Source: an uncultured Elusimicrobia bacterium (GTDB lineage: Bacteria; Elusimicrobiota; Elusimicrobia; 2-01-FULL-59-12). From it: 64,000 nt of DNA. Position 1 is the stretch's first letter. Each line of letters opens with the position of its first letter. Positions 49,069 through 64,000 of this stretch are shown here, piece after piece. The notes beneath the pieces were generated by a model. That model did no database searches and had not been told where the DNA came from. It saw nothing but the letters and a program-made list of their open reading frames with translations. The stretch covers positions 448,001 to 512,000 of the forward strand of contig OY969767.1 in assembly GCA_963702895.1 (NCBI GenBank), written 5' to 3'. The translations under genes and the position numbers were made by a program.

Positions 49069-49100
49069 TGTCCCGTGTCTCGCGTCCTGCGTCCCGAGTC
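49069..49100. repeat. Heptamer array, left arm
   Basis: tgtcccg tgtctcg cgtcctg cgtcccg agtc. Confidence 0.8.
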
Positions 49101-49112
49101 AAGTGAAAGAGA

Positions 49113-49655
49113 ATGGCCAAGTTCGAAAAATTTGAAGATATTGAAGCATGGCAGATTTGCCGTGCCCTTATGAAATCGATCTATGAGGTCACGTCTCGTA
49201 ACGAGTTTGCTCGAGATTTTCCGCTTCGAGATCAGATCCGGAAGGCGGCCATATCAGCGCTGTCAAATATTGCGGAAGGTTTTGAGCGAGGTGGAGACAA
49301 AGAGTTCCGGCAATTTCTCTCCGTAGCAAAAGGCTCCATCGGTGAAATGAAGGCGCAGCTTTATGCCGCTTTTGACGCAGGATATTTAAAGGACGAGAAA
49401 TTCCAAGATCTTATGGAAATGGCGGATCATGCTGCGCGCAAGATCGGAAGTCTCATGCAATATCTGGCCAGTTCTGAATATAAAGGTGTCAAATTCCGAG
49501 ATTCCGATGCGGGACTCGAGACGCGGGACGCGGGACTCAAGACACAGGACGCGGGACTCGAGACGCGGGACGCGGGGCTCAAGACACAGGACGCGGGACT
49601 CAAGACACAGGACGCGGGACTCGAGACGCGGGACGCGGGACTTCATCATGGGTAA
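49113..49655 (+). CDS. Four-helix bundle protein (23S rRNA IVS/TIGR02436-like) with repeat-encoded tail
   Basis: [37 protein letters not shown]; tail (DAGL(E/K)T(R/Q))n. Confidence 0.92.
49506..49641. repeat. Heptamer array, right arm (reverse complement of left arm)
   Basis: ggacgcg/ggactcg/agacgcg/agacaca units with a 21-nt higher-order period. Confidence 0.9.
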
Positions 49656-53500: not shown

Positions 53501-53594
53501 CGAACCGGCGAGTGGGCGAGCCGGCGTGTCGGCGAATAGTCGACCAGCTATTGGAGCTGCGTCCGGACCGCCCGCGGAGAGCACTTGAAACGCT
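53501..53594 (+). repeat. Module X, copy 1
   Basis: Near-identical to the 3' part of 55541-55665; each copy precedes a TA pair. Confidence 0.9.
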
Positions 53595-53632
53595 CCGTTG
53601 CAACCCCCTGCCGCTCCTGTTAGAATGGCGGT

Positions 53633-53902
53633 ATGAAAGTGAACCGCGATCTCCTCTGGGACTACCACTTTAGTGAAGAAGAACTGGAAACTGAGTCCTT
53701 CCGCCAGTGGTATGTCGCTCGTGTCCTGACGCAGGGAACCTGCGAAGATATTCATGATCTAGGACTGCCGCTCATTCGCCGGCACCTTCCCGATCTGTGG
53801 CTCCCATCCGCCATACGACATTTCTGGGAATGGTATTTTGCGCTCCCTCATGCCCAATCCACCCGACCCGATACTTACTACTTTCCAGATCGAGCTGCTT
53901 AG
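53633..53902 (+). CDS. Small putative antitoxin (DUF6922-like)
   Basis: LLWDY..WYVARVL..G...D..FWEWYF; overlaps an AbiEii-like gene. Confidence 0.75.
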   Translation: MKVNRDLLWDYHFSEEELETESFRQWYVARVLTQGTCEDIHDLGLPLIRRHLPDLWLPSAIRHFWEWYFALPHAQSTRPDTYYFPDRAA

Positions 53903-54506
53903 CCGCATCGCTCGATCTCCGCTCAAGAAGACTTTCTTTTTGACGGGAGGAACGGCTTTGTCGGCCTGCTATCTGCGGCATCGTTTATCGGAAGATCTTG
54001 ATTTTTTTACGGAAGAACCCCATGCGGTCAGGCAGGTCGAAGCCCATCTTGCGGCCCTCGTCCGTGAAGCTTCCTGCAAACTGCGCATTGCCAGGCAATT
54101 TGACACTTTTATAGAAGCGTTTGTGACGTCTCCCCAGGGAGAGACGGTCAAAATTGATTTTGCCCAGGACTCTCCCTTTCGGCTGAGACCGATCGAAGTC
54201 TCCGAGTACGGCATCCGTGTGGATAATGCGCTGGACATCGCGTGCAACAAGCTGTCGGCACTCTTTGAACGGGCAGCGTCCAAGGATTTTGTAGATCTGT
54301 ACTTTATCACGCAGAAGTTGTTTCCATTTCAAGAGCTCCTGAGGGACGCCCGGAAAAAGCATGTCGGGCTGGACGCTTATTGGCTTGCGATCGCCTTCCA
54401 GCGCGTTGAGCGAATTGACAAATGGCCGGTCATGAAAATCCCCTGTGATTTTGAAGCTCTCCGCGCCGACTTCCTGGCCAAAGCCCGCGAACTGCTGGCG
54501 CCTTGA
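53850..54506 (+). CDS. AbiEii-family nucleotidyltransferase toxin
   Basis: LTGGTAL...YL.HRLSEDLDFF, NKL.AL..R...KDFVDLY. Confidence 0.9.
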   Translation: MPNPPDPILTTFQIELLSRIARSPLKKTFFLTGGTALSACYLRHRLSEDLDFFTEEPHAVRQVEAHLAALVREASCKLRIARQFDTFIEAFVTSPQGETVKIDFAQDSPFRLRPIEVSEYGIRVDNALDIACNKLSALFERAASKDFVDLYFITQKLFPFQELLRDARKKHVGLDAYWLAIAFQRVERIDKWPVMKIPCDFEALRADFLAKARELLAP

Positions 54507-54529
54507 AGCCAAGGAGACTGTCCTTTCCG

Positions 54530-54894
54530 ATGATCTGATACGGCAGATCCTGGGTACCGTACGGCGGATCCGCCGCACGGAGCCTAAGATCCGCCCCATG
54601 GTTCATAGAATCCGCCTCTTTCCCAAGGCCCAAGGCCTTTCTGCCCATGCCGTCCTGGGTTTTTATTTAACCTAATATTAACAGTGCCGCCATTTGGCCG
54701 TAACCTGCCTCCGCTATGCTTTATGGCGATGGGGCGCCAGAGCACACGGCGCCCGCCCACGTAGGCGAGGACCGCTTTTCAGGGTGGCCCGCCGGAAAGG
54801 GCGGATCCAGATAGGCACTATCAAGGAGCCCCACAATACGACCGCCTCGGCGAAAGCCTGGCGGAAACGGGTCCCCCGAGAAGCTTTGTGGGAC
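54530..54894 (+). repeat. Module L, copy 1 (collapsed 21-bp repeats plus structured leader)
   Basis: Highly similar to both ends of 58188-58952. Confidence 0.9.
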
Positions 54895-54914
54895 ACCAAA
54901 ACGAGGAGCTAATC

Positions 54915-55160
54915 ATGAAACGCTTAATTCGAGTCTTAGCAGCCCTGGCTGTAATCGTCACAATCGGTGGAGTTGGCAAGAGCTTCGCTGATGATAATCG
55001 GGAGATGCTCTGCCAAGCTGCACTAGTGGTAGAAGACTGGGCGAGAGAAGATTGGCTTGCCTGCATAAGAGGATACACAGAAGAATCGTGTAAGAGTCAA
55101 AGGGATAACTATAGTCAGGCCGTTCAGAATTCGATATGGTGGTGCCAAATTATGATTTAA
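54915..55160 (+). CDS. Small secreted 4-Cys peptide (81 aa)
   Basis: RBS gaggag; Sec signal MKRLIRVLAALAVIV..SFA; 4 Cys in the mature part. Confidence 0.8.
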   Translation: MKRLIRVLAALAVIVTIGGVGKSFADDNREMLCQAALVVEDWAREDWLACIRGYTEESCKSQRDNYSQAVQNSIWWCQIMI

Positions 55161-55253
55161 CTTTTCATAGTGCAGTCTTCAGTAAACGGTAAGTTTATAA
55201 CACCCCCCGCCCGGGCGAAAGCCCCGGCGGGGTGCTGTGGTTTTGAGGGGACG

Positions 55254-55350
55254 GTCCTCGGAAACTCGGTAAGTTTTAAACAACATCCCTCCGCCCGGGC
55301 GAAAACCCCCGGCGGGGGATTGTCTTGTTGGACCGAGCTAGCGTGTTGGC
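55254..55350 (+). repeat. Module H, copy 1 (long hairpin; partial copy at 55186-55235)
   Basis: ctcggt..accgag closing stem with a ccgggcgaaa.ccccgg apex; repeated at 59733 and 62799. Confidence 0.9.
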
Positions 55351-55376
55351 GAACCGGCGAGTGGGCGAGCCGGCGA

Positions 55377-55490
55377 CCCGCCTACGCTAAAGCTACGGCG
55401 GGCAAGCCCGGCGACCCGCCTACGCTAAAGCTACGGCGGGCAAGCCCGGCGACTCGCCTACGCTAAAGCTACGGCGGGCAAGCCCGGCGA
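55377..55490 (+). repeat. Three tandem 38-bp palindromic REP-like units
   Basis: cccgcctacgctaaagctacggcgggcaagcccggcga x3. Confidence 0.9.
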
Positions 55491-55540
55491 ATCGCCCGCC
55501 ACTACATCACGGCGGGCCCGCCAACGATGTGATGGCGGGG

Positions 55541-55665
55541 CGAACCGGCGAGTGGGCGAATCGGCGAACCGGCGAGTGGGCGAATCGGCGAGCCGGCGTG
55601 TCGGCGAATAGTCGACCAGCTATTGGAGCTGCGTCCGGACCGCCCGCGGGGAGCACTTGAGCGCT
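55541..55665 (+). repeat. Module X, copy 2
   Basis: Matches 53501-53594, with extra octamer units. Confidence 0.9.
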
Positions 55666-55729
55666 ACACAGACGAAATTGGCCTGGTAGCAAGAGAAGCG
55701 GGATGCTATACTTAAGCAGGTAATCGAAA

Positions 55730-55918
55730 ATGAAATGCAATGCCAATCCTCATTCCAAGCGTGATCCCAAAAAAGCTCTGGAAATCCTGCGCCGCAGCCA
55801 GAATCTGTCTAGTCGCCACGGCGGCCCTACCCAAGGGATGACCAAGGACGAGATCATCCGGTCCATCAAAAAAACCCGCGAAGAGTTGTGGTCTACGTAT
55901 CTTGCGCCTCGTTCTTGA
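55730..55918 (+). CDS. Small putative antitoxin
   Basis: GMTKDEIIRSIKKTREELW; overlaps the PIN gene. Confidence 0.65.
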   Translation: MKCNANPHSKRDPKKALEILRRSQNLSSRHGGPTQGMTKDEIIRSIKKTREELWSTYLAPRS

Positions 55919-56321
55919 CTCCAACGAATACATTCTAGTTTTCGGCAGCGAACGGGATCCCGCGAGCGAGAAGCTCTTGGCTCAAATCGCTGTGAAGTCA
56001 AACAAGTACACGCTCAGCATTTGCCGTCCAATTTTGGACGAACTGGGCCGCCATCTTCTCCCCCGCCAGTTAAGCGATGTCTACTCCTTTCTGAACGCAA
56101 TCACCGTTAACATCGATGAACGCTGGGTTGTCCCATTTGAATTTGTTGAGCGTTATATCGAACGCGGGCTAAAGCGCGGAGACGCTTTTATCGCAGGGTA
56201 TACGGAGTGGGTAGGCGCGGATTGCCTTGTTTCAGAAAATCGTGCCGACATCGTCAGTCAAGCCAAGCTCTTTCCTTTTCGAGTATTCACCGCCGAACAA
56301 TTCATAAAAAAACATCACTAA
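55902..56321 (+). CDS. PIN domain (VapC-like) toxin
   Basis: RLVLDSN, ILDEL, GDAFIA, CLVSEN. Confidence 0.85.
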   Translation: MRLVLDSNEYILVFGSERDPASEKLLAQIAVKSNKYTLSICRPILDELGRHLLPRQLSDVYSFLNAITVNIDERWVVPFEFVERYIERGLKRGDAFIAGYTEWVGADCLVSENRADIVSQAKLFPFRVFTAEQFIKKHH

Positions 56322-56672
56322 TTTGCGCTGGAACGACGCCCCAGCCATCGAGATATCATGTGGTTATATTACGCGGTATTATAACCGCCTGTCAGTCGGC
56401 GCGGGCGATCTGCGCGGACTGCAGAGTTTTCGGGACTATTACGGCCGCAAACACCAGGCGTGGCTTTTCTACGCCGGCGACACCCCGAAAAGACTCGTTA
56501 ATGTCAACCTTCGGCCCTGGCAAAGCGGCCTGCGCGAGCTTGTCGAGTCACCATTGAATGGGCGGACGGTCCGTGACGGTCATGAGTCTTCTAACCCAAA
56601 AGCTCACGTAACGCCCAAGTCTCATCGGAGCACTTTTCACCGTTTCGGTACCCCTTCCGTCGTCACCCCGAT

Positions 56673-57886
56673 TTCTATGACCTCGGTCAAGCATTTTTTA
56701 GGATCCGAGGATTGACTGACCTATAGTCAGCAAGATACGGTGACTTTGTGCGCAGTACGGCACAGATAATGCGCAAGAGTTTGTTGGCAATGTTGTTGAG
56801 CGCCAAGCGTTTGGCTTTTCCGGCTTGTACTTTTCTTTCAAAGTAGTGCCTGAACTGCTGATGATGTGTGCGAAGGGATCGGGCTGCCAGGTGCAATAGC
56901 TTGCGGATGATGTCCGGACCGATCCCGCGAGAGCTTGCATTCTTGCGCACGGAAGTTCCGCTGGAGTGTTCGAGTGGGCACATGCCCAAATACGAGGCGA
57001 TGCGGCGGGGTTCCAGGGATCGCGTAAAGCCTTGGCTGATGACCATCAAATGGGCCGTCAAGAGTCGGCCCACCCCAGGGATGGTGAGCAGCAAGCTCAC
57101 CATGGGGCCAATGGTGGGGTGGTTTGAGATCAGTTGATCCAAGGCCTGATCGATTTTTTTGATCTGTTCTTTGAGATGGCGGATGGTGTCCAGGAAGCTT
57201 TGTTCGGCGAGGATCGTGCGAACGACTTTCCGGCTGATGGCCGACAAGGCATTTTGATTGGCGGTCATCTGGCCGGTCAGCTGCTCGCGCGTCGTCAGAA
57301 GAACACGGACTTGTTCGATCAAGGCTTCCGAGGGTTTCCAGAACGCGAGTTGATCGAAAAAGCGCCAGGCATATTCGGCGAGCTGGCGGCTATCGATGGG
57401 GTCGCTTTTGGCTCCCAGGGGGTGAAAGGCGCGTTTGGTTTTATGCGGCGCCTCCACCGACACCGGATAGCCTTTGGCACAGAGCCAGTAGCAGAGCTGC
57501 TCCGCATAAACACCGGTGGCTTCCATGCAGACCACGGTATTGGTGGAATCGACTCCGCGTTTCTTAAACCAGGCTTCGAATTCCTCAAAGCCGGCGGGTG
57601 TATTGGCGAGCGTCTGATGTTTGGAATACTTTTGTTCGGCTGAGCTGTAATGTGTTGCGCTGAAGGTTTGATCGGCGATATCAACGCCTATGTAATGGAG
57701 AGGTGGGTTCATAAGGCTCCTTTTTGTAAGTGCCGACATTCGTGATGCGAGCTTTGCCTATTAAGGGTTTTTATGACATCACTTCTATCTAGCTTTGGAT
57801 CACGAAAGAATGGGGTCTTTACCGGGGTATGGTTTTCACCTTGGCGAAAGTTAGACTTATTCCATTCTTGTCGGTGTCTTCTTCTA
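56673..57886 (-). mobile_element. IS110-family element
   Basis: Recombinase ORF, structured upstream non-coding end, and TTCTA at both putative boundaries (56673-56677, 57882-57886). Confidence 0.75.
56687..57712 (-). CDS. IS110 family DEDD recombinase/transposase
   Basis: IGVDIA, CMEATGVY, KSDPIDS, IPGVG, P..HSSG. Confidence 0.95.
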   Translation of the reverse strand: MNPPLHYIGVDIADQTFSATHYSSAEQKYSKHQTLANTPAGFEEFEAWFKKRGVDSTNTVVCMEATGVYAEQLCYWLCAKGYPVSVEAPHKTKRAFHPLGAKSDPIDSRQLAEYAWRFFDQLAFWKPSEALIEQVRVLLTTREQLTGQMTANQNALSAISRKVVRTILAEQSFLDTIRHLKEQIKKIDQALDQLISNHPTIGPMVSLLLTIPGVGRLLTAHLMVISQGFTRSLEPRRIASYLGMCPLEHSSGTSVRKNASSRGIGPDIIRKLLHLAARSLRTHHQQFRHYFERKVQAGKAKRLALNNIANKLLRIICAVLRTKSPYLADYRSVNPRILKNA

Positions 57887-58187
57887 GAGTCTACAAAGAC
57901 TCGAGAAAAGTCTAATAGGCGAAAGCCGGCCCTCCAGACTCCCGGCGGGCCGAGTCGCCGGACTTGTGGAGACCCGGGGTCCAGTCCATCGGATGTTCTG
58001 GATACCGGCCCGCCAGACTACCGTCGGGCCGCCCGCCAGGGTAGTGTGGAGGGCGGCGTTCGCCGGTATGACGGCATTGGCTTACGTGAGGATTTGGGTT
58101 CTTTACGCTTCCGTTGGGCAATTCCCGTAAGCGCCCGAGCCTCGCCATGATCGGCTCACACGCCATCGGCCTGGTCAAAACGATCTT

Positions 58188-58952
58188 ATGATCTGATACG
58201 GCAGATCCTGGGTACCGTACGGCGGAACCTTGGTACCATACAGCAGATCTTCAGTACCGTACGGCAGATCTTTGGTACATACGGCGGATCTTCAGTACCG
58301 TACGGCGGATCTTCAGTACCGTACGGCGGGTCCTTGGTACCATACGGCGGATCTCCGGTACCGTACAGCAGATCTTTGGTACCGTACGGCGGATACTAGA
58401 TATCGTACGGCAGATCTTCGATTCCCATGCAGCGGATCTGCCCCATGGTACTGAAGATCTGCCCCATGGTACTGAAGATCTGCCTCATGGAGCTTGAAGA
58501 TCCGCCTCATGGTACTGAAGCTCCGCCTCATGGAACCGAAGATCTGCCGTACGAAGCTGATGATCCGCCGCATGGTTCCTCGAATCCGCCTCACGGTTCC
58601 TCGGATCCGCCTCACGGAGCCTAAGATCCGCCGCACGGAGCCTAAGATCCGCCCCATGGTTCATAGAATCCGCCTCTTTCCCAAGGCCCAAGGCCTTTCT
58701 GCCCATCCTGTCCTGGGTTTTTATTTAACTCATTTTTAACACTGCCACCATTTGCCCGTAACCTGCCTCCACTATGCTTTATGGCGATGGGGCGCCAGAG
58801 CACACGGCGCCCGCCCACGTAGGCGAGGACCGCGTTTCAGGGTGGCCCGCCGGAACGGGCGGATCCAGATAGGCAATATCAAGGAGCCCCACAAAACGAC
58901 CGTCACGGCGAAAGCCTGGCGGAAACGGGTCCCCCCAGAAGCTTTGTGGGAC
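58188..58952 (+). repeat. Module L, copy 2 (expanded inverted 21-bp arrays plus structured leader)
   Basis: (tacggcggatcttcagtaccg)n followed by reverse-complement units, then the leader shared with copy 1. Confidence 0.9.
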
Positions 58953-58968
58953 TTAAAGGAGACAGAAA

Positions 58969-59220
58969 ATGAAGAAAGTATTCTTAGGTGCTGCGCTGGT
59001 GCTCGGTATCAGCTTCTTTGCCAATCCTCAGCAAGCGTTCGCATGGTGTTACAGCATCGGTAATGGTGAAACGCAGTGTGTTGAAGTTTACCGCGACGCT
59101 CCCGAATGCGATGGCGGACAGCTGGCCTGGGTCACTGAAGGGGTCATGTCTGATGGCGTCTTCTGGATCAGCAGAGAGTACTCCTACTGTCGCACGTGGG
59201 GGGTACCTCAAATGTACTGA
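58969..59220 (+). CDS. Small secreted 4-Cys peptide (83 aa)
   Basis: RBS aaggag; signal MKKVFLGAALVLG..AFA; 4 Cys; terminator-like hairpin 59250-59290. Confidence 0.8.
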   Translation: MKKVFLGAALVLGISFFANPQQAFAWCYSIGNGETQCVEVYRDAPECDGGQLAWVTEGVMSDGVFWISREYSYCRTWGVPQMY

Positions 59221-59732
59221 TGTTTGAATAACGAATTAGCTGTAGTTCACAAAAACGCCCCACCAGACGTCTGGTGGGACGTTTTGTTTTGTCCGTAAAT
59301 CCAGCCGATTCCTTGGCCCTTCGCGGAGAATTATTGTGGAGTTTTGAAGTTTTGAGGGGACGCTCATTAGAGGTTTTTCCGTCAAGTGGCGAAAGATCTC
59401 CTCCCGCCGTGTCGTGGCTGTTGATGTATCGTGAAACCTCCGTTGTAGACGTTGCCGCATCCAGGTTCTCTCTTTTTTAGGTTACGGCACGAAGCCGCAC
59501 CAGACACTCATCAGGATCAAGACGAACACGATGAACTGCGCTCATCCCTGCCCCCTCACGGGAGCCCAGAAAACCATTGGTGCCCGGCTCTGTCCAGACT
59601 CATGATCGCCCGACGTCTGGCGATCGACAGTTCTGTGGCTGGCTCGCCCGACTTCTGGCGGCTGCCATCCCTTTGTGGCTCAGCGCCGAGGCGTCTTCGC
59701 CTAAAACAGCGGGTGACGGAAACGGCTAATCA

Positions 59733-59828
59733 GTCCTCGGAAACTCGGTAAGTTTTAAACAACATCCCCCCGCCCGGGCGAAAGCTCCGGCGGGGGATTG
59801 TCTTGTTGGACCGAGCTAGCGTGTTGGT
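59733..59828 (+). repeat. Module H, copy 2
   Basis: Near-identical to 55254-55350. Confidence 0.9.
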
Positions 59829-60010
59829 GAACCGGCGAGTGGGCGAATCGGCGAATCGGCGAACCGGCGAGTGGGCGAATCGGCGAACCGGCGAGTGGGC
59901 GAATCGGCGAACCGGCGAGTGGGCGAATCGGCGAACCGGCGAGTGGGCGAATCGGCGAACCGGCGAGTGGGCGAATCGGCGAACCGGCGAGTGGGCGAAT
60001 CGGCGAACCG
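59829..60010 (+). repeat. 24-bp tandem repeat built from octamers
   Basis: (ggcgaatc ggcgaacc ggcgagtg) about 7 times. Confidence 0.95.
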
Positions 60011-60179
60011 GAACGGCGGCAGACCGGAGCGGCGGCTTGCCGGAGTGGCGGTGAGTGGTAGCCTTAATAAAAGAGTACCTATCACCGATGTTCTGGAGGG
60101 CCGATTCTCTGGAGGGCCGATGTTCGGGAGCGCCGACAAGGAGACCCGCCTACGCTCAAGCTACGGCGGGCAAGCCCGG
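60001..60179 (+). repeat. Module Y, copy 1
   Basis: Apparently identical to 62988-63166; diverged copy at about 37555-37685. Confidence 0.9.
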
Positions 60180-60306
60180 CGAACTTCCGACACGGGGACG
60201 CGACCCCCCCCCCCCCCCCCATCACGTTACGAGGATTTTGAGTTTCACTCGCCGCCTCTCCAGGATTACCGCCTCTGCACGACACCTGCCGTTCGCGCGC
60301 ACATAT

Positions 60307-62121
60307 CCCAAATAATCCGATAAGCCACCCCTGACGTCATCCCCCGCGGCCGTCAGCGGGGGATCCATCGACGGCCTTGGTGTAGGTGTTGGTGGCGGGA
60401 TCGAAGACGAAGGGTTTCACTTATTGGGTGAAAAATGAGGGGTCAACACAGGAGGCTTTGAAAAAGGGTGCAGCGCGTGATTTTACAGCGACGCGCAGAG
60501 GCAATAAAATACCTCGCAAGCCAGAGTGGAATCTGAACTGCGAGGTGCTTTTATGTTACTGAAGAACTTGGACGTATACAAGGTCTCGACGACGGATCAA
60601 GCGGTGACGAGTTTTGCAGGGCTGCCGTTGTTGTTGGGGACGGCACGGAGCCTGGGGTTGGAGGAGCGGCTCAATGCGCTGCCGGTGAAGGAGCGGGCGC
60701 GGGGATACGATCCTGCCGAGAGTATTTTGGGGTTGATGGGATCGATCCAGGCGGGCGGGGAAGCGCTCGAAGACATCGGGCTGCTGCAAGGGGACGAGGG
60801 GATACGGCGCTTGCTGGGGGATTTTCCGGCAGCGAACACGTTGGGCGAATTTCTTCGGCGTTTTGGGCGCAAGACGATTCATGGGTTGGGATGGGTCCAG
60901 CTCAAGACGGCGGCGAAGGTGATCCGGGCCTGCGAGCTGTCTATTGTGACGATCGATATCGACGCTTATTTTTTGGAGTCACAGAAGGAAGGCGTCTTGA
61001 TGAATTACGATGGACTGGAAGGGTATTGTCCGGTGATGGTCAGTTGCGCGGAGCTGAAGATGCCGCTGGCCGGGGCGTTTCGGGCAGGCAATGCGAGCCC
61101 GATGGCGAACCTGGCGAGTTTGTTGCGGCGGGTCTTGCGGCAGTTTTCCGGTTTGCGGATGAGGGCGCGCTCAGACAGCGCGGGGTATCAGGCGAAGGTG
61201 GTTCGGGAATTGGATCGGGCCGGGGTGGACTTCACCATCACGGCGCGCAAGGATGATGCCGTTTTGGAAGCGATTCGGTCGATTCCGGAGAAGGCCTGGA
61301 AGAAGTACAACTCGCCGGTCTATCCCCATAAGGGATCTGAGATTGCCGAGACGGTGCATGCTTTTGGGGAGGCGGACAAGGATATCGCCGCATTTCGGTT
61401 GGTCGTGGTGCGCTGGCAGCAGGAGCCGCAAGGCGAGCTTTTCGATAAGGAGCACTTTGAATACCATGCGGTGGCGACGCGGTTCACATGGGAACCGGGA
61501 TTGGTTCTGCAATTTCACCGTAACCGGCAGGATGGGTCGGAGAACGTGAACCGGGAGATGAAGAGCGAGGGTGGGTTTGGATTATCCAAGCTGCCGTGCC
61601 GGGATTTTATGGCCAATGCCGCCTATTTCCAGATCGCGATGTTGGCGTCGGTGGTCACGGCAGCCTTCAAGCATTTGGTTCTGCCGAAAGCCTGGCAGAG
61701 CTTCACGATCCAGACGCTGCGGCACCGGCTGATCCGCTTGGCCGGGACAGTGTGCCGGAAGTCGCGCTATCTGTGGTTAAAGATTCCGGAAAACTACCCG
61801 TTCCGGCGGGTTTTTGAAGAGGCGCGCTATGGCGTGTTGGGGCTGTCTGTGGTGATCGCGTCTACCGGTTGATTGACGGGACGGCGACACCGAAGGCATC
61901 GACGGAGGGAAAGAACCGAACAGAGGGTCGGAGCGGCGAAAACTGCCGCAAAAGGCCGACAATTGATCAGACGGTAGTCTGAACCGCCTCCGAGGGAAGC
62001 CAAGGGTACCCGAAGCAGGCGAGAAACCTGGTCGCCGCGGCGACCGAGCGGTGAAAAATTGGGACCTATGTGTGGCCTACGTCAAAACGCAGCGCTGCAG
62101 AAAATTACCGGAGCTTTTGGG
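60307..62121 (+). mobile_element. IS1380-family insertion sequence
   Basis: Imperfect terminal IRs cccaaataatccg / cggagcttttggg, flanked by an ACATAT direct repeat. Confidence 0.75.
60553..61872 (+). CDS. IS1380 family DDE transposase
   Basis: TSFAGL, IDID, GY.P, R.GNA, RSDSAGY, EN.NRE.K, FMANAAY. Confidence 0.9.
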   Translation: MLLKNLDVYKVSTTDQAVTSFAGLPLLLGTARSLGLEERLNALPVKERARGYDPAESILGLMGSIQAGGEALEDIGLLQGDEGIRRLLGDFPAANTLGEFLRRFGRKTIHGLGWVQLKTAAKVIRACELSIVTIDIDAYFLESQKEGVLMNYDGLEGYCPVMVSCAELKMPLAGAFRAGNASPMANLASLLRRVLRQFSGLRMRARSDSAGYQAKVVRELDRAGVDFTITARKDDAVLEAIRSIPEKAWKKYNSPVYPHKGSEIAETVHAFGEADKDIAAFRLVVVRWQQEPQGELFDKEHFEYHAVATRFTWEPGLVLQFHRNRQDGSENVNREMKSEGGFGLSKLPCRDFMANAAYFQIAMLASVVTAAFKHLVLPKAWQSFTIQTLRHRLIRLAGTVCRKSRYLWLKIPENYPFRRVFEEARYGVLGLSVVIASTG

Positions 62122-62170
62122 ACATATTTGACCACTTGCACGGTAGGCGCTAATGTGTTAAACTAACCGC

Positions 62171-62461
62171 GTGATCAAGGACTTTGGCGATGCTAGTTCA
62201 GAGGACTTCTTTCATGGGGTTTCTTCGAAGGCGGCGCGTAAGATCCCGCAAAATCTGGCATCTGTCGCGCATCGAAAATTGGACATGCTGAATGCCGCTC
62301 AAACACTGGCTGATTTGACAGCGCCTCCCGCCAACCGATTGGAAGCTTTGAAAGGGGACCGGAAGGGTTACCACAGTATCCGGGTCAACGATCAATTTCG
62401 GGTTATTTTTAGGTGGGTGGACGGCCATGCCCATGAGGTCCAGATCGTTGATTATCATTAG
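62171..62461 (+). CDS. higB: HigB (RelE-like) toxin
   Basis: RKLDML..PPANRLEALKGDR.G.HSIRVNDQFR..F.W..DYH. Confidence 0.95.
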   Translation: MIKDFGDASSEDFFHGVSSKAARKIPQNLASVAHRKLDMLNAAQTLADLTAPPANRLEALKGDRKGYHSIRVNDQFRVIFRWVDGHAHEVQIVDYH

Positions 62462-62490
62462 ACGGAAAGTCATCGAGAAAGGAGGCTAGA

Positions 62491-62763
62491 ATGATCCCAT
62501 CCCACCGCGAACCCACTCATCCCGGGGAGGTGCTTCTGCAGGAGTTTTTGAAGCCCCTGAAAGTGAGCCAAAGCGCGCTAGCGGCCAAGCTGGGGGTTTC
62601 ACTCCAGCGGGTGAATACCTTAATCAATGGCAAGCGCGATATCACGGCGGAAACTGCCGTGCTCCTGGCTCAATTCTTTAAGACCACACCTGAATTCTGG
62701 ATGAATCTGCAGGTTGCCTGCGACCTCTACGAGGCCAAAAAGCGTCTGCTCCATGCGGCATAG
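62491..62763 (+). CDS. higA: HigA antitoxin
   Basis: PTHPGE.L..EFL.P; IT..TA..LA..F.TTPEFWMNLQ. Confidence 0.95.
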   Translation: MIPSHREPTHPGEVLLQEFLKPLKVSQSALAAKLGVSLQRVNTLINGKRDITAETAVLLAQFFKTTPEFWMNLQVACDLYEAKKRLLHAA

Positions 62764-62798
62764 AACGGTGACGCAGCGCCCTAGGCCATAAGGACCGC

Positions 62799-62890
62799 TC
62801 CTCGGAAATTCGGTAAGTGTGTAACACCCCCTGCCCGGGCGTAAGCTCCGGCGGGGGGGTGTATTGTTGGACCGAGCTAGCGTGTCGGCG
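62799..62890 (+). repeat. Module H, copy 3 (diverged)
   Basis: Same ends and apex as copies 1 and 2, with compensatory stem changes. Confidence 0.85.
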
Positions 62891-62987
62891 AATGGACGAA
62901 CCGGCGAATCGGCGCACCGGCGAACCGGCGAGTGGGCGAGACGGCGACCCGCCTACGCTAAAGCTACGGCGGGCAAGCCCGGAGAAG

Positions 62988-63166
62988 CGGCGAACCGGAA
63001 CGGCGGCAGACCGGAGCGGCGGCTTGCCGGAGTGGCGGTGAGTGGTAGCCTTAATAAAAGAGTACCTATCACCGATGTTCTGGAGGGCCGATTCTCTGGA
63101 GGGCCGATGTTCGGGAGCGCCGACAAGGAGACCCGCCTACGCTCAAGCTACGGCGGGCAAGCCCGG
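62988..63166 (+). repeat. Module Y, copy 2
   Basis: Matches 60001-60179. Confidence 0.9.
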
Positions 63167-63269
63167 GGACGGCGGGCGAAGTGCAATATGTTTGGGCGCC
63201 TTTGACGTTTGATAGACACGCCTATTAAATATACTAGACAGATCTATTATATTCTGCTATCCTTGCAGC

Positions 63270-64000
63270 ATGCTGACCCGGGAATTTGTTCGAACGTTGG
63301 TCCAACGAATGCGGGAACCCTCGCCGCTCATTCAAGTGGTCTTAGGACCGCGCCAGGTGGGGAAGACCACCGGCGTGCTGCAGATGAAAGAGACGTATGC
63401 CGGGCCATCGTTTTACGCGACGGCCGATGACACCTTGTCCGTCTCCAACCGGTGGATCCAGGAGCAATGGCAGGCCGCGCTGGAAAAGGGCCCTGGGACG
63501 GTGCTCATCATCGATGAGATTCAGAAGATCCAGAACTGGGCGGAAGTGATCAAGCGGCTTTGGGACGCCCAGGCGCGTTCTTCCCAAAAGTTGAAGTGCG
63601 TGCTGCTGGGGTCTAGTTCGCTCACCCTGCAAAAGGGACTCACGGAGAGCCTGGCGGGCCGCTTTGAGCTCGTGGCGGTGCATCACTGGAGCTACCCGGA
63701 ATGGCACGAAGCCTTCGGGGACGACCTGGAGGCGTTCTTGCGTTACGGCGGGTACCCCGCGGCGCACGCCTATCAGAACGACTACCCCCGGTGGTTCTCC
63801 TATCTGAAGTCTTCCGTCGTCGATATGGTGGTCGGCCAGGATATCCTGGCCCAGCAAACCGTTGCCAAACCAGCACTCTTCCGACAGGCATTCGAAATTC
63901 TTTGCGGCTATCCGGCGCAGGAGGTCAGTTACACCACACTTTTGGGACAACTTCACGACCGCGGCAATACCGATCTGGTCAAACATTATCTGGAACTCTA
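63270..64000 (+). CDS. AAA ATPase (AAA_14/DUF4143 type), runs off the window
   Basis: Translated by hand: MLTREF..GPRQVGKTT, IIDEIQK, LGSS, ESLAGRF, YGGYP. Confidence 0.9.
   Translation, partial: MLTREFVRTLVQRMREPSPLIQVVLGPRQVGKTTGVLQMKETYAGPSFYATADDTLSVSNRWIQEQWQAALEKGPGTVLIIDEIQKIQNWAEVIKRLWDAQARSSQKLKCVLLGSSSLTLQKGLTESLAGRFELVAVHHWSYPEWHEAFGDDLEAFLRYGGYPAAHAYQNDYPRWFSYLKSSVVDMVVGQDILAQQTVAKPALFRQAFEILCGYPAQEVSYTTLLGQLHDRGNTDLVKHYLEL

Follow-up and report, generated by a model that had tools for sequence, protein, structure and literature searches.

This report concerns the last part of a window of 64,000 nucleotides (the whole stretch analysed, G000:C1:448001-512000) from an uncultured Elusimicrobia bacterium, whose metagenome-derived genome is a 2.72-Mb single contig of 57% GC. 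Positions below are those of the window unless they are called genome positions. In this part lies a stack of about 11 kb, in which toxin-antitoxin (TA), defence and small secreted-protein genes are separated by near-identical hairpin spacers. SIMPL/DUF502 genes bound the site on one side and a macB-like transporter on the other; the array runs to genome position 512433, beyond which come an octamer hairpin and then the macB-like efflux operon. The original prediction, drawn from the DNA alone, had named the recurring noncoding modules X, L, H and Y and read them as an integron-like cassette system. Re-reading the sequence gave the same module order and strands, with all cargo on the plus strand. 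The inventory of four modules had overlooked a fourth, degenerate copy of H, an insert in H2 resembling a miniature inverted-repeat transposable element (MITE), and a probable 3' remnant of an AAA-DUF4143 gene. The spacers and cargo genes are given here in order along the window, with the strand where one was assigned; REP denotes the repetitive extragenic palindrome type of hairpin.

53503..53588, plus: octamer run and X1 (octamer arm closed by a double hairpin); the X core occurs only twice in the genome
53633..53902, plus: cargo A1, putative antitoxin, weak DUF6922 (E 0.011, below cut-off); homolog in G004
53850..54506, plus: cargo A2, AbiEii nucleotidyltransferase toxin, type IV TA (PF08843, E 2e-21; PADLOC AbiEii)
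54531..54617: T21a, short 21-mer tandem foldback element of a genome-wide family
54611..54894, plus: L1, AT-rich promoter-like part and 170-nt structured leader ending in GTGGGAC, 5' of a ribosome-binding site; two copies in the genome
54915..55160, plus: peptide 1, 81 aa, signal peptide, 4 Cys; modelled as a two-helix hairpin (pLDDT 82)
55175..55245: H0, degenerate copy of H
55247..55345: H1, arm of the TIRYT terminal-repeat type, inner hairpin and truncated right arm
55346..55590: octamer runs at both ends, enclosing three 38-nt REP-like hairpins and the Z double hairpin; every family is dispersed
55587..55660, plus: X2
55730..56321, plus: cargo B, 62-aa putative antitoxin and 139-aa PIN-like toxin (label inferred from PIN_3, E 0.19, below cut-off)
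58189..58676: T21b, long 21-mer tandem foldback element with the same ends as T21a
58669..58952, plus: L2, second copy of L
58969..59220, plus: peptide 2, 83 aa, signal peptide, 4 Cys; modelled with four beta-strands (pLDDT 81)
59734..59825: H2, its start split by the MITE-like element
59826..60182: octamer array (period 24), foldback element Y1, REP; the Y family is dispersed in congener G003
62171..62763, plus: cargo C, HigB-HigA; 68% identical homolog in another TA cluster of G001
62791..62885: H3, most diverged of H1-H3
62886..63169: octamers, REP, Y2, REP
63270..64000, plus: cargo D, AAA_14-DUF4143 ATPase-nuclease, 387 aa (PADLOC PDC-S01), continuing to genome position 512433

The spacers are 95-99% identical between copies, with identities of 73/74 positions for X, 311/328 for the 21-mer end plus L, and 186/189 for Y plus REP. 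As predicted, the genes in matching slots are unrelated; in local alignments against 100 shuffles, the slot fillings score no better than the shuffles (TA slot, 23 versus a shuffle maximum of 28; peptide slot, 18 versus 30; HigBA against AAA, 24 versus 28). In both slots homology breaks off sharply at the module ends, and the spacers mark the cargo junctions. The view that plain tandem duplication fails to account for the cargo also stands, since matching slots hold unrelated genes. The labels DUF6922 and PIN_3 both lie below the Pfam cut-offs.

The site itself is variable. In congener G001 and in G007 the interval after SIMPL is occupied by two other genes each, and in congener G003 by a single DCC1-LMF1 gene; in G004 DUF502 abuts acrB directly at the equivalent site. 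The comparison covers the SIMPL neighbourhoods of these four relatives, and not those of G009 and G010. Three cargo units have homologs at other places in relatives, where X, L and H are absent. Judged by sequence, the region is a site where accessory cassettes appear to have piled up. The locus is a repeat-scaffolded accessory-gene stack akin to the known REP/TIRtron repeat clusters, and not an integron.

Origin of the spacers

Most of the spacers have a repeat origin. The genome is rich in dispersed hairpin families, with 1600 repeat segments, and Y, the 38-nt REP, the octamer runs, the Z double hairpin and the 21-mer foldbacks belong to families spread through it. The 38-nt REP has 12 matches in the genome, three of them in tandem at the array, and Z has 24; viral sequences gave no match to the 38-nt REP. 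T21a and T21b differ only in the number of internal units. Whole-genome search leaves the X core and L as the only modules unique to the locus, so that the scattering which the original prediction had named as counting against it holds for Y, REPs, octamers, 21-mers and the arm that starts H, and not for these two. An integron-like system confined to this locus is unsupported: most modules are dispersed genome-wide, and the same architecture is found with other local spacers at about 25 places in the genome and in relatives. In congener G003 the Y family is scattered among ordinary genes. One Y-family hairpin there appears to sit inside a reading frame (L075:3290-3430, G003 C114), which we take to be priA-like.

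Spacer H is an imperfect hairpin of 75-90 nt with GTTGGAC at its right end. Copies are found after peptide 1, after the peptide 2 unit and after HigBA, and H lies close behind two of the stop codons. H1 and H2 share 92 identical positions with 4 mismatches and 1 gap, and H3 matches the other copies at 79-81 of 92-97 positions (about 82-87%). In relative G411 (C270) inverted repeats that match the first 24 nt of H, in an alignment with H1 and H3, enclose an intact 347-aa gene with Y1_Tnp plus Bac_DnaA_C domains. A Y1 gene inside such inverted arms is what Di Nocera et al. (2013, PMC3733652) call a TIRtron or TIRYT; Quentin et al. (2018, PMC6006769) place TIRYT in TnpA-Y1 subclass 2.1. Because the same arm inversely flanks the G411 gene, H is assigned to the TIRYT repeats, and by sequence it appears to derive from the terminal inverted repeat (TIR) of such an HUH/Y1 element. 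Away from the gene, the arm has 5 matches in G000 and also occurs in 4 of 200 other genomes of the class; the backward control gave 0 matches in those five genomes and 1 elsewhere. Against the consensus GGGG[AT][CG]A[CG] given in both papers, H1 (GGGGACGG) fits 7 of 8 positions and the G411 arm (GGGGACGT) fits 6 of 8.

The array holds no intact TIRtron, as no Y1 gene lies there between complete inverted repeats. The sole Y1 gene of G000 is truncated and lies at genome position 390.7 kb, and the cognate TIRYT of H was not found in G000. No cognate gene of the RAYT type with the same REPs was found in G000 either, and the flanks of 15 Y1 loci in the family gave no significant match. Searches with the inner hairpin of H returned chance matches only, the TIR pattern had one unrelated match in viral sequences, and Rfam placed nothing over L or H at E<=1 between 48 and 64 kb. 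The truncated Y1/RAYT-like gene (L085:5674-5930) retains an inverted repeat on its two sides, which belongs to a different family. At genome position 634 kb the first 24 nt of H are found again, in an inverted group; the surrounding region (L080:7300-14750, genome 627-635 kb) has a 115-nt hairpin in four copies, placed between orphan genes, and the inverted group of H arms comes with a 69-nt triplication.

Module L, about 280 nt long, precedes two unrelated secreted peptides and is the least explained part of the array. Its 170-nt leader, which contains stem-loops, folds better than shuffles (z -2.7 for L1, -2.3 for L2). Of the 7 substitutions between the copies 2-3 break pairs where about half would be expected, too small a set to speak for or against selection on the structure. 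Homology between the copies ends sharply 16-20 nt before the start codon, exactly at GGGAC, leaving the Shine-Dalgarno sequence outside the repeat. The most probable role of L is that of a promoter joined to a 5' leader, serving any secreted-peptide gene placed downstream of it. A consensus promoter scan found none in L. Promoter and terminator counts in the array are at chance level (5 versus 4.1 and 15 versus 11.7); the calls include a promoter-like site for cargo A1 at 53598-53626 and a terminator at 59259-59290, past peptide 2.

Searches for homologs of L found none. L2 alone had no Rfam match at E<=10, blastn found no homolog in 40 relatives, and in 400 genomes of the phylum it returned only matches of 20-45 nt at E 0.001-0.01. 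A two-sequence covariance model run on the genome and 149 class genomes gave three weak matches, judged coding or unrelated, and exact patterns of L gave 0 matches in metagenomes, 17 in viral contigs, all by chance, and 1 in GTDB contigs, inside a gene. Hammerhead, HDV-like, group II intron, c-di-GMP and SAM-I identities were considered by comparing motifs by eye and were dropped; Rfam gave no match.

The two peptides are predicted to have unrelated folds, as their models indicate. In word-index searches both match only themselves, and Atlas matches stay under 0.8. For peptide 1, word-index and Atlas searches, with no HMMER-library or fold search made, found no homolog beyond a signal-peptide paralog at genome position 2510364; this 82-aa secreted six-cysteine peptide (genome 2510364-2510612) shares a similar signal peptide and has no L in front. 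Peptide 2 has one true homolog, P0006, at 51% identity with the four cysteines kept and encoded on a 6.7-kb contig; Foldseek returned nothing at E<=0.001, and 200 class genomes contained no match.

Stacks elsewhere in the genome and in relatives

Local spacer repeats are common in this genome. With an intergenic set from our own simple gene caller, with each pair counted twice and some paralog arrays included, 476 of 1143 intergenic regions have a repeat partner of 40-700 nt. In 65 regions the best partner lies within 12 kb (0.9% expected if partners were uniform), and since pairs are counted twice this amounts to approximately 26 loci, by eye. Local partners are 63 direct and 2 inverted; among distant partners 224 are direct and 187 inverted. 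Another stack, at genome 1.850-1.857 Mb (L034:500-8700), holds RHH-PIN, DUF433-DUF5615 (twice), DUF7342-TumE and VapB-PIN between local spacers of its own, giving five recognisable TA pairs, one of them duplicated with its flanks.

Ten regions of relatives were examined, a biased sample picked for TA matches, the H arm or SIMPL, and 5 of the 10 (L127, L129, L131, L132 and L135) have local spacer repeats around small accessory genes. In G008 a Gp49/HI1420 TA pair is enclosed by two direct copies of a 118-nt element bearing the H arm, which agree at 112 positions with 6 mismatches and 5 gaps; the array around them includes an AAA-DUF4143 gene and secreted-protein genes. In G005 (C53, L127:9570-11400) a TIRYT 3' end and its repeat are copied twice upstream of the intact gene, and a Phd/ParE pair lies between the copies. 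In G004 (C2, L070:6400-9400) a DUF6922/AbiEii homolog sits between direct copies of the last codons of AAA-DUF4143, with a further gene of this type after it. In each of these three genomes a single cassette has direct repeats on both sides. In the full-text literature, as far as titles and the starts of abstracts go, no description of TA stacks at TIRYT repeats was found, and supplements of the TIRtron papers may list cases; the part of PMC5581495 available has nothing on them. These observations suggest that the stack is probably, if not securely, one case of a common habit of the lineage, the addition of genes at repeat sequences.

Two further arrangements were seen. In the G008 region (L135:4250-10300, C45) there are two spacer families, and a 200-nt repeat holds the start of a secreted-protein gene with its signal peptide, resembling a replacement start. 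At genome 2722023-2724212, near the contig end, three direct copies of a 100-nt hairpin lie between AT-rich orphan genes.

Proposed recombination at the spacers and its alternatives

We lean, with some reserve, towards the reading that recombination at the repeats brought the cassettes in and duplicated the repeats in the process, and that homologous recombination by the host would be enough for this. Each cassette would come in on a small circle, or with an allelic version of the site from a related strain, bearing a copy of a spacer. One crossover within the common spacer would then add the cassette and leave the spacer as a direct repeat on each side. The recombinase would be encoded away from the site, and the 70-330 nt of homology available would be adequate for host recombination; the TA cassettes would carry their own promoters. 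In a first event the unit X-A-T21-L-peptide 1-H-REPs would have joined the homologous unit X-B-T21-L-peptide 2-H, after the slots had been refilled in different lineages (the spacers differ by ~4-5%). The divergence of X (1.4%), L (5.2%) and H (~4-5%) is compatible with one event joining two alleles. In a second event the unit Y-REP-HigBA-H3 would have been added at Y ahead of the AAA gene, and the 1.6% divergence between the Y copies is compatible with a later addition of HigBA that brought its own, more diverged H3. The IS110 insertion sequence (IS), the IS1380-like element and the MITE would have been inserted afterwards. The variability of the site, the excess of direct over inverted local repeats, the second stack, the bracketed cassettes of relatives and the cargo homologs that lack X, L and H speak for this reading.

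Several points weigh against this reading. The array is found in no close relative, so that gain, loss or swap of a cassette at an exact spacer is unseen, and the refilling of two slots between alleles whose spacers are only ~4.5% apart is a step that we infer. Direct orientation is also expected from plain tandem duplication and from co-oriented genes, and the tally of local repeats carries the gene caller, double counting and paralog arrays mentioned above. Finally, some junctions lie at GGGAC (the end of L and the MITE insertion), which homologous recombination does not predict. As to movement in the population, one of three sequencing runs shared 0.31 of the sequence words, and contigs gave 8 short identical pieces and no reliable joint; in this thin set no excision, circle or reordering of cassettes was seen, which speaks neither for nor against mobility.

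The GGGAC junctions bear on an alternative that we regard as unlikely while giving it some weight, in which a TIRYT (HUH/Y1, subclass 2.1) would work in trans on single-stranded DNA, cleaving and rejoining it at GGGAC terminal repeats and so excising and inserting cassettes, with the H-type arms as recombination sites in an integron-like way of different chemistry. The match of the first 24 nt of H to the repeats around the intact G411 gene argues for it, as do the place of H behind peptide 1, the peptide 2 unit and HigBA, the exact stop of L homology at GGGAC and the MITE in the centre of a palindrome. An H arm adjoins TA pairs in G008 and G411, in G005 the TA pair is enclosed by copies of a TIRYT end that adjoin the intact gene, a short GGGAC-type motif lies just beyond the stop of the HigBA homolog in G001, and Y1 genes occur in 9 of the 10 other genomes of the family. 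Escherichia coli TnpA-REP recombines BIMEs in vitro and is proposed to capture flanking genes, according to the part of PMC3333891 available. On the other hand, the one Y1 gene of G000 is truncated and this genome lacks a cognate TIRYT; none of X, Y, the REPs and the 21-mers is a TIR arm, and X, L, H and Y are unmatched in the flanks of the 15 family Y1 loci. Both copies of the arm in G004 flank ordinary genes, GGGAC is short and common, the coincidence with junctions was spotted after the fact, and the available parts of the TIRYT descriptions (PMC3733652, PMC6006769) report no activity test. A broader proposal is doubtful: that TIRYT repeats and other hairpins form a lineage-wide platform for gene capture through single-strand tyrosine chemistry, with L as a new mobile promoter-leader, possibly a regulatory RNA, whose GGGAC-cut slot exchanges genes for secreted cysteine-rich peptides. 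The spacers might instead play no role, the repeats and ISs having been inserted independently in a tolerated junk site, with a segment duplicated in place and genes replaced illegitimately. The abundance of dispersed hairpins, the slippage-like difference between the 21-mer elements, the ISs and MITE that hit the array, and the one true duplication including cargo in the second stack fit such passive debris. We nevertheless consider it improbable, as the second unit keeps no remnant of A or peptide 1 and the first none of B or peptide 2, the limits of homology in both slots coincide sharply with those of the modules, and three other genomes also have cassettes between direct repeats.

The integron reading fares far worse. 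No integron integrase is present in the genome, the best TIGR02249 score being 91.7 bits against a cut-off of 265; the four tyrosine recombinases lie more than 130 kb off at the nearest, and the one serine recombinase is also distant. The prediction had seen no integrase, and none, nor any other recombinase, was recognised by eye among the open reading frames of the 18 kb past the window. It had also denied that H is a canonical attC, and rightly: on both strands 0 of 15 GTTRRRY sites have an RYYYAAC partner 30-145 nt upstream, and H1-H3 are still alike for ~20 nt past GTTGGAC, the point at which crossover between attC sites would cut the homology off. A CALIN (an integron cassette array that lacks its integrase), with H as an atypical attC, would suit an imperfect hairpin of this size that carries GTTGGAC on its right side and lies close behind two stop codons, and small co-oriented cassettes that include TA pairs with their own promoters. 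Given the lack of a TIGR02249 protein above the cut-off, the lack of paired cores, the homology beyond GTT and the TIRYT-repeat origin of H, we consider it very improbable. Least probable of all is that assembly joined repeat-flanked pieces of different strains. The contig is single and metagenome-derived, and no listed piece from an independent contig spans the array; against an artefact, the spacer copies differ by 1.5-18% with distinct cargo, the IS1380-like copy has an intact target duplication, and separately assembled relatives have the same architecture.

Known repeat systems offer partial parallels. TIRtrons share the arm that starts H, which is the terminal inverted repeat of the Y1 plus Bac_DnaA_C gene in the relative, and their arms are likewise met far from the gene, singly, in pairs or in groups. 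Unlike them, the arm here shares its composite spacers with other repeats, of at least six families in all, and has a truncated right partner and no cognate gene in the genome; the available parts of PMC3733652 and PMC6006769 do not describe stacks of TA or defence cassettes at TIRs. REPs and BIMEs are also dispersed hairpins with local tandem amplification, seen here in the three 38-nt REPs, and in the part available the TnpA-REP paper (Ton-Hoang et al., PMC3333891) extends its capture proposal to gene fragments; in contrast, the present spacers are mosaics of several families, 100-600 nt long, that divide whole unrelated cassettes without a REPtron. The available part of Arbiol et al. (2010, PMC2839356) describes the PeSL cassettes of T4-type phages, in which ~100-nt promoter/stem-loop spacers beside orphan genes are shuffled by spacer recombination. 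By analogy the locus may resemble these in function, with L nearest to the PeSL role, but the array is chromosomal with several spacer types and only two copies of L, and PeSLs include the Shine-Dalgarno sequence before which L ends.

The clustering of TA and defence genes in chromosomes without integrons is poorly explained, and these loci suggest hairpin repeats, including TIRYT ends, as landing sites that would be copied at each addition of a cassette. If only homologous recombination acts, the stack would be a chromosomal counterpart of phage spacer-mediated shuffling. TIRYT enzymes, for their part, gain a concrete candidate substrate in the G411 gene, its own repeats and H, and L may be an undescribed expression module.

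Inserted elements and neighbouring genes

The remaining features of the array are the following.

56323..56560, plus: probable AAA-DUF4143 3' remnant after the PIN gene, weak (tblastn to the C-terminus of a paralog, E 0.85)
56592..58100: composite hairpin element interrupted by IS110; intact copy at genome 1281906-1282066
56661-57929, minus: IS110; 4 other copies
59363..59733: MITE-like element, 370 nt, 22-nt imperfect inverted ends, inserted at the midpoint of the palindrome GGGAC-N-GTCC with which H2 starts
60307..62121, plus: IS1380-like element (DDE_Tnp_1_4), target duplication ACATAT; 6 other copies

The IS110 here sits in a REP-like hairpin, and two of its four other copies have the same right flank, which suggests that it targets repeats. 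Including cargo D, eleven AAA_14-DUF4143-like loci are found genome-wide at E<0.001, some of them clustered (743-746 kb and 1575-1582 kb). Outside the stack, at 49069-49655 of the window, a four-helix-bundle (23S_rRNA_IVP) gene lies between gltB and gltD with inverted tandem 7-mer arrays on both sides; in G003 and G004 gltB and gltD are adjacent, without this gene between them.

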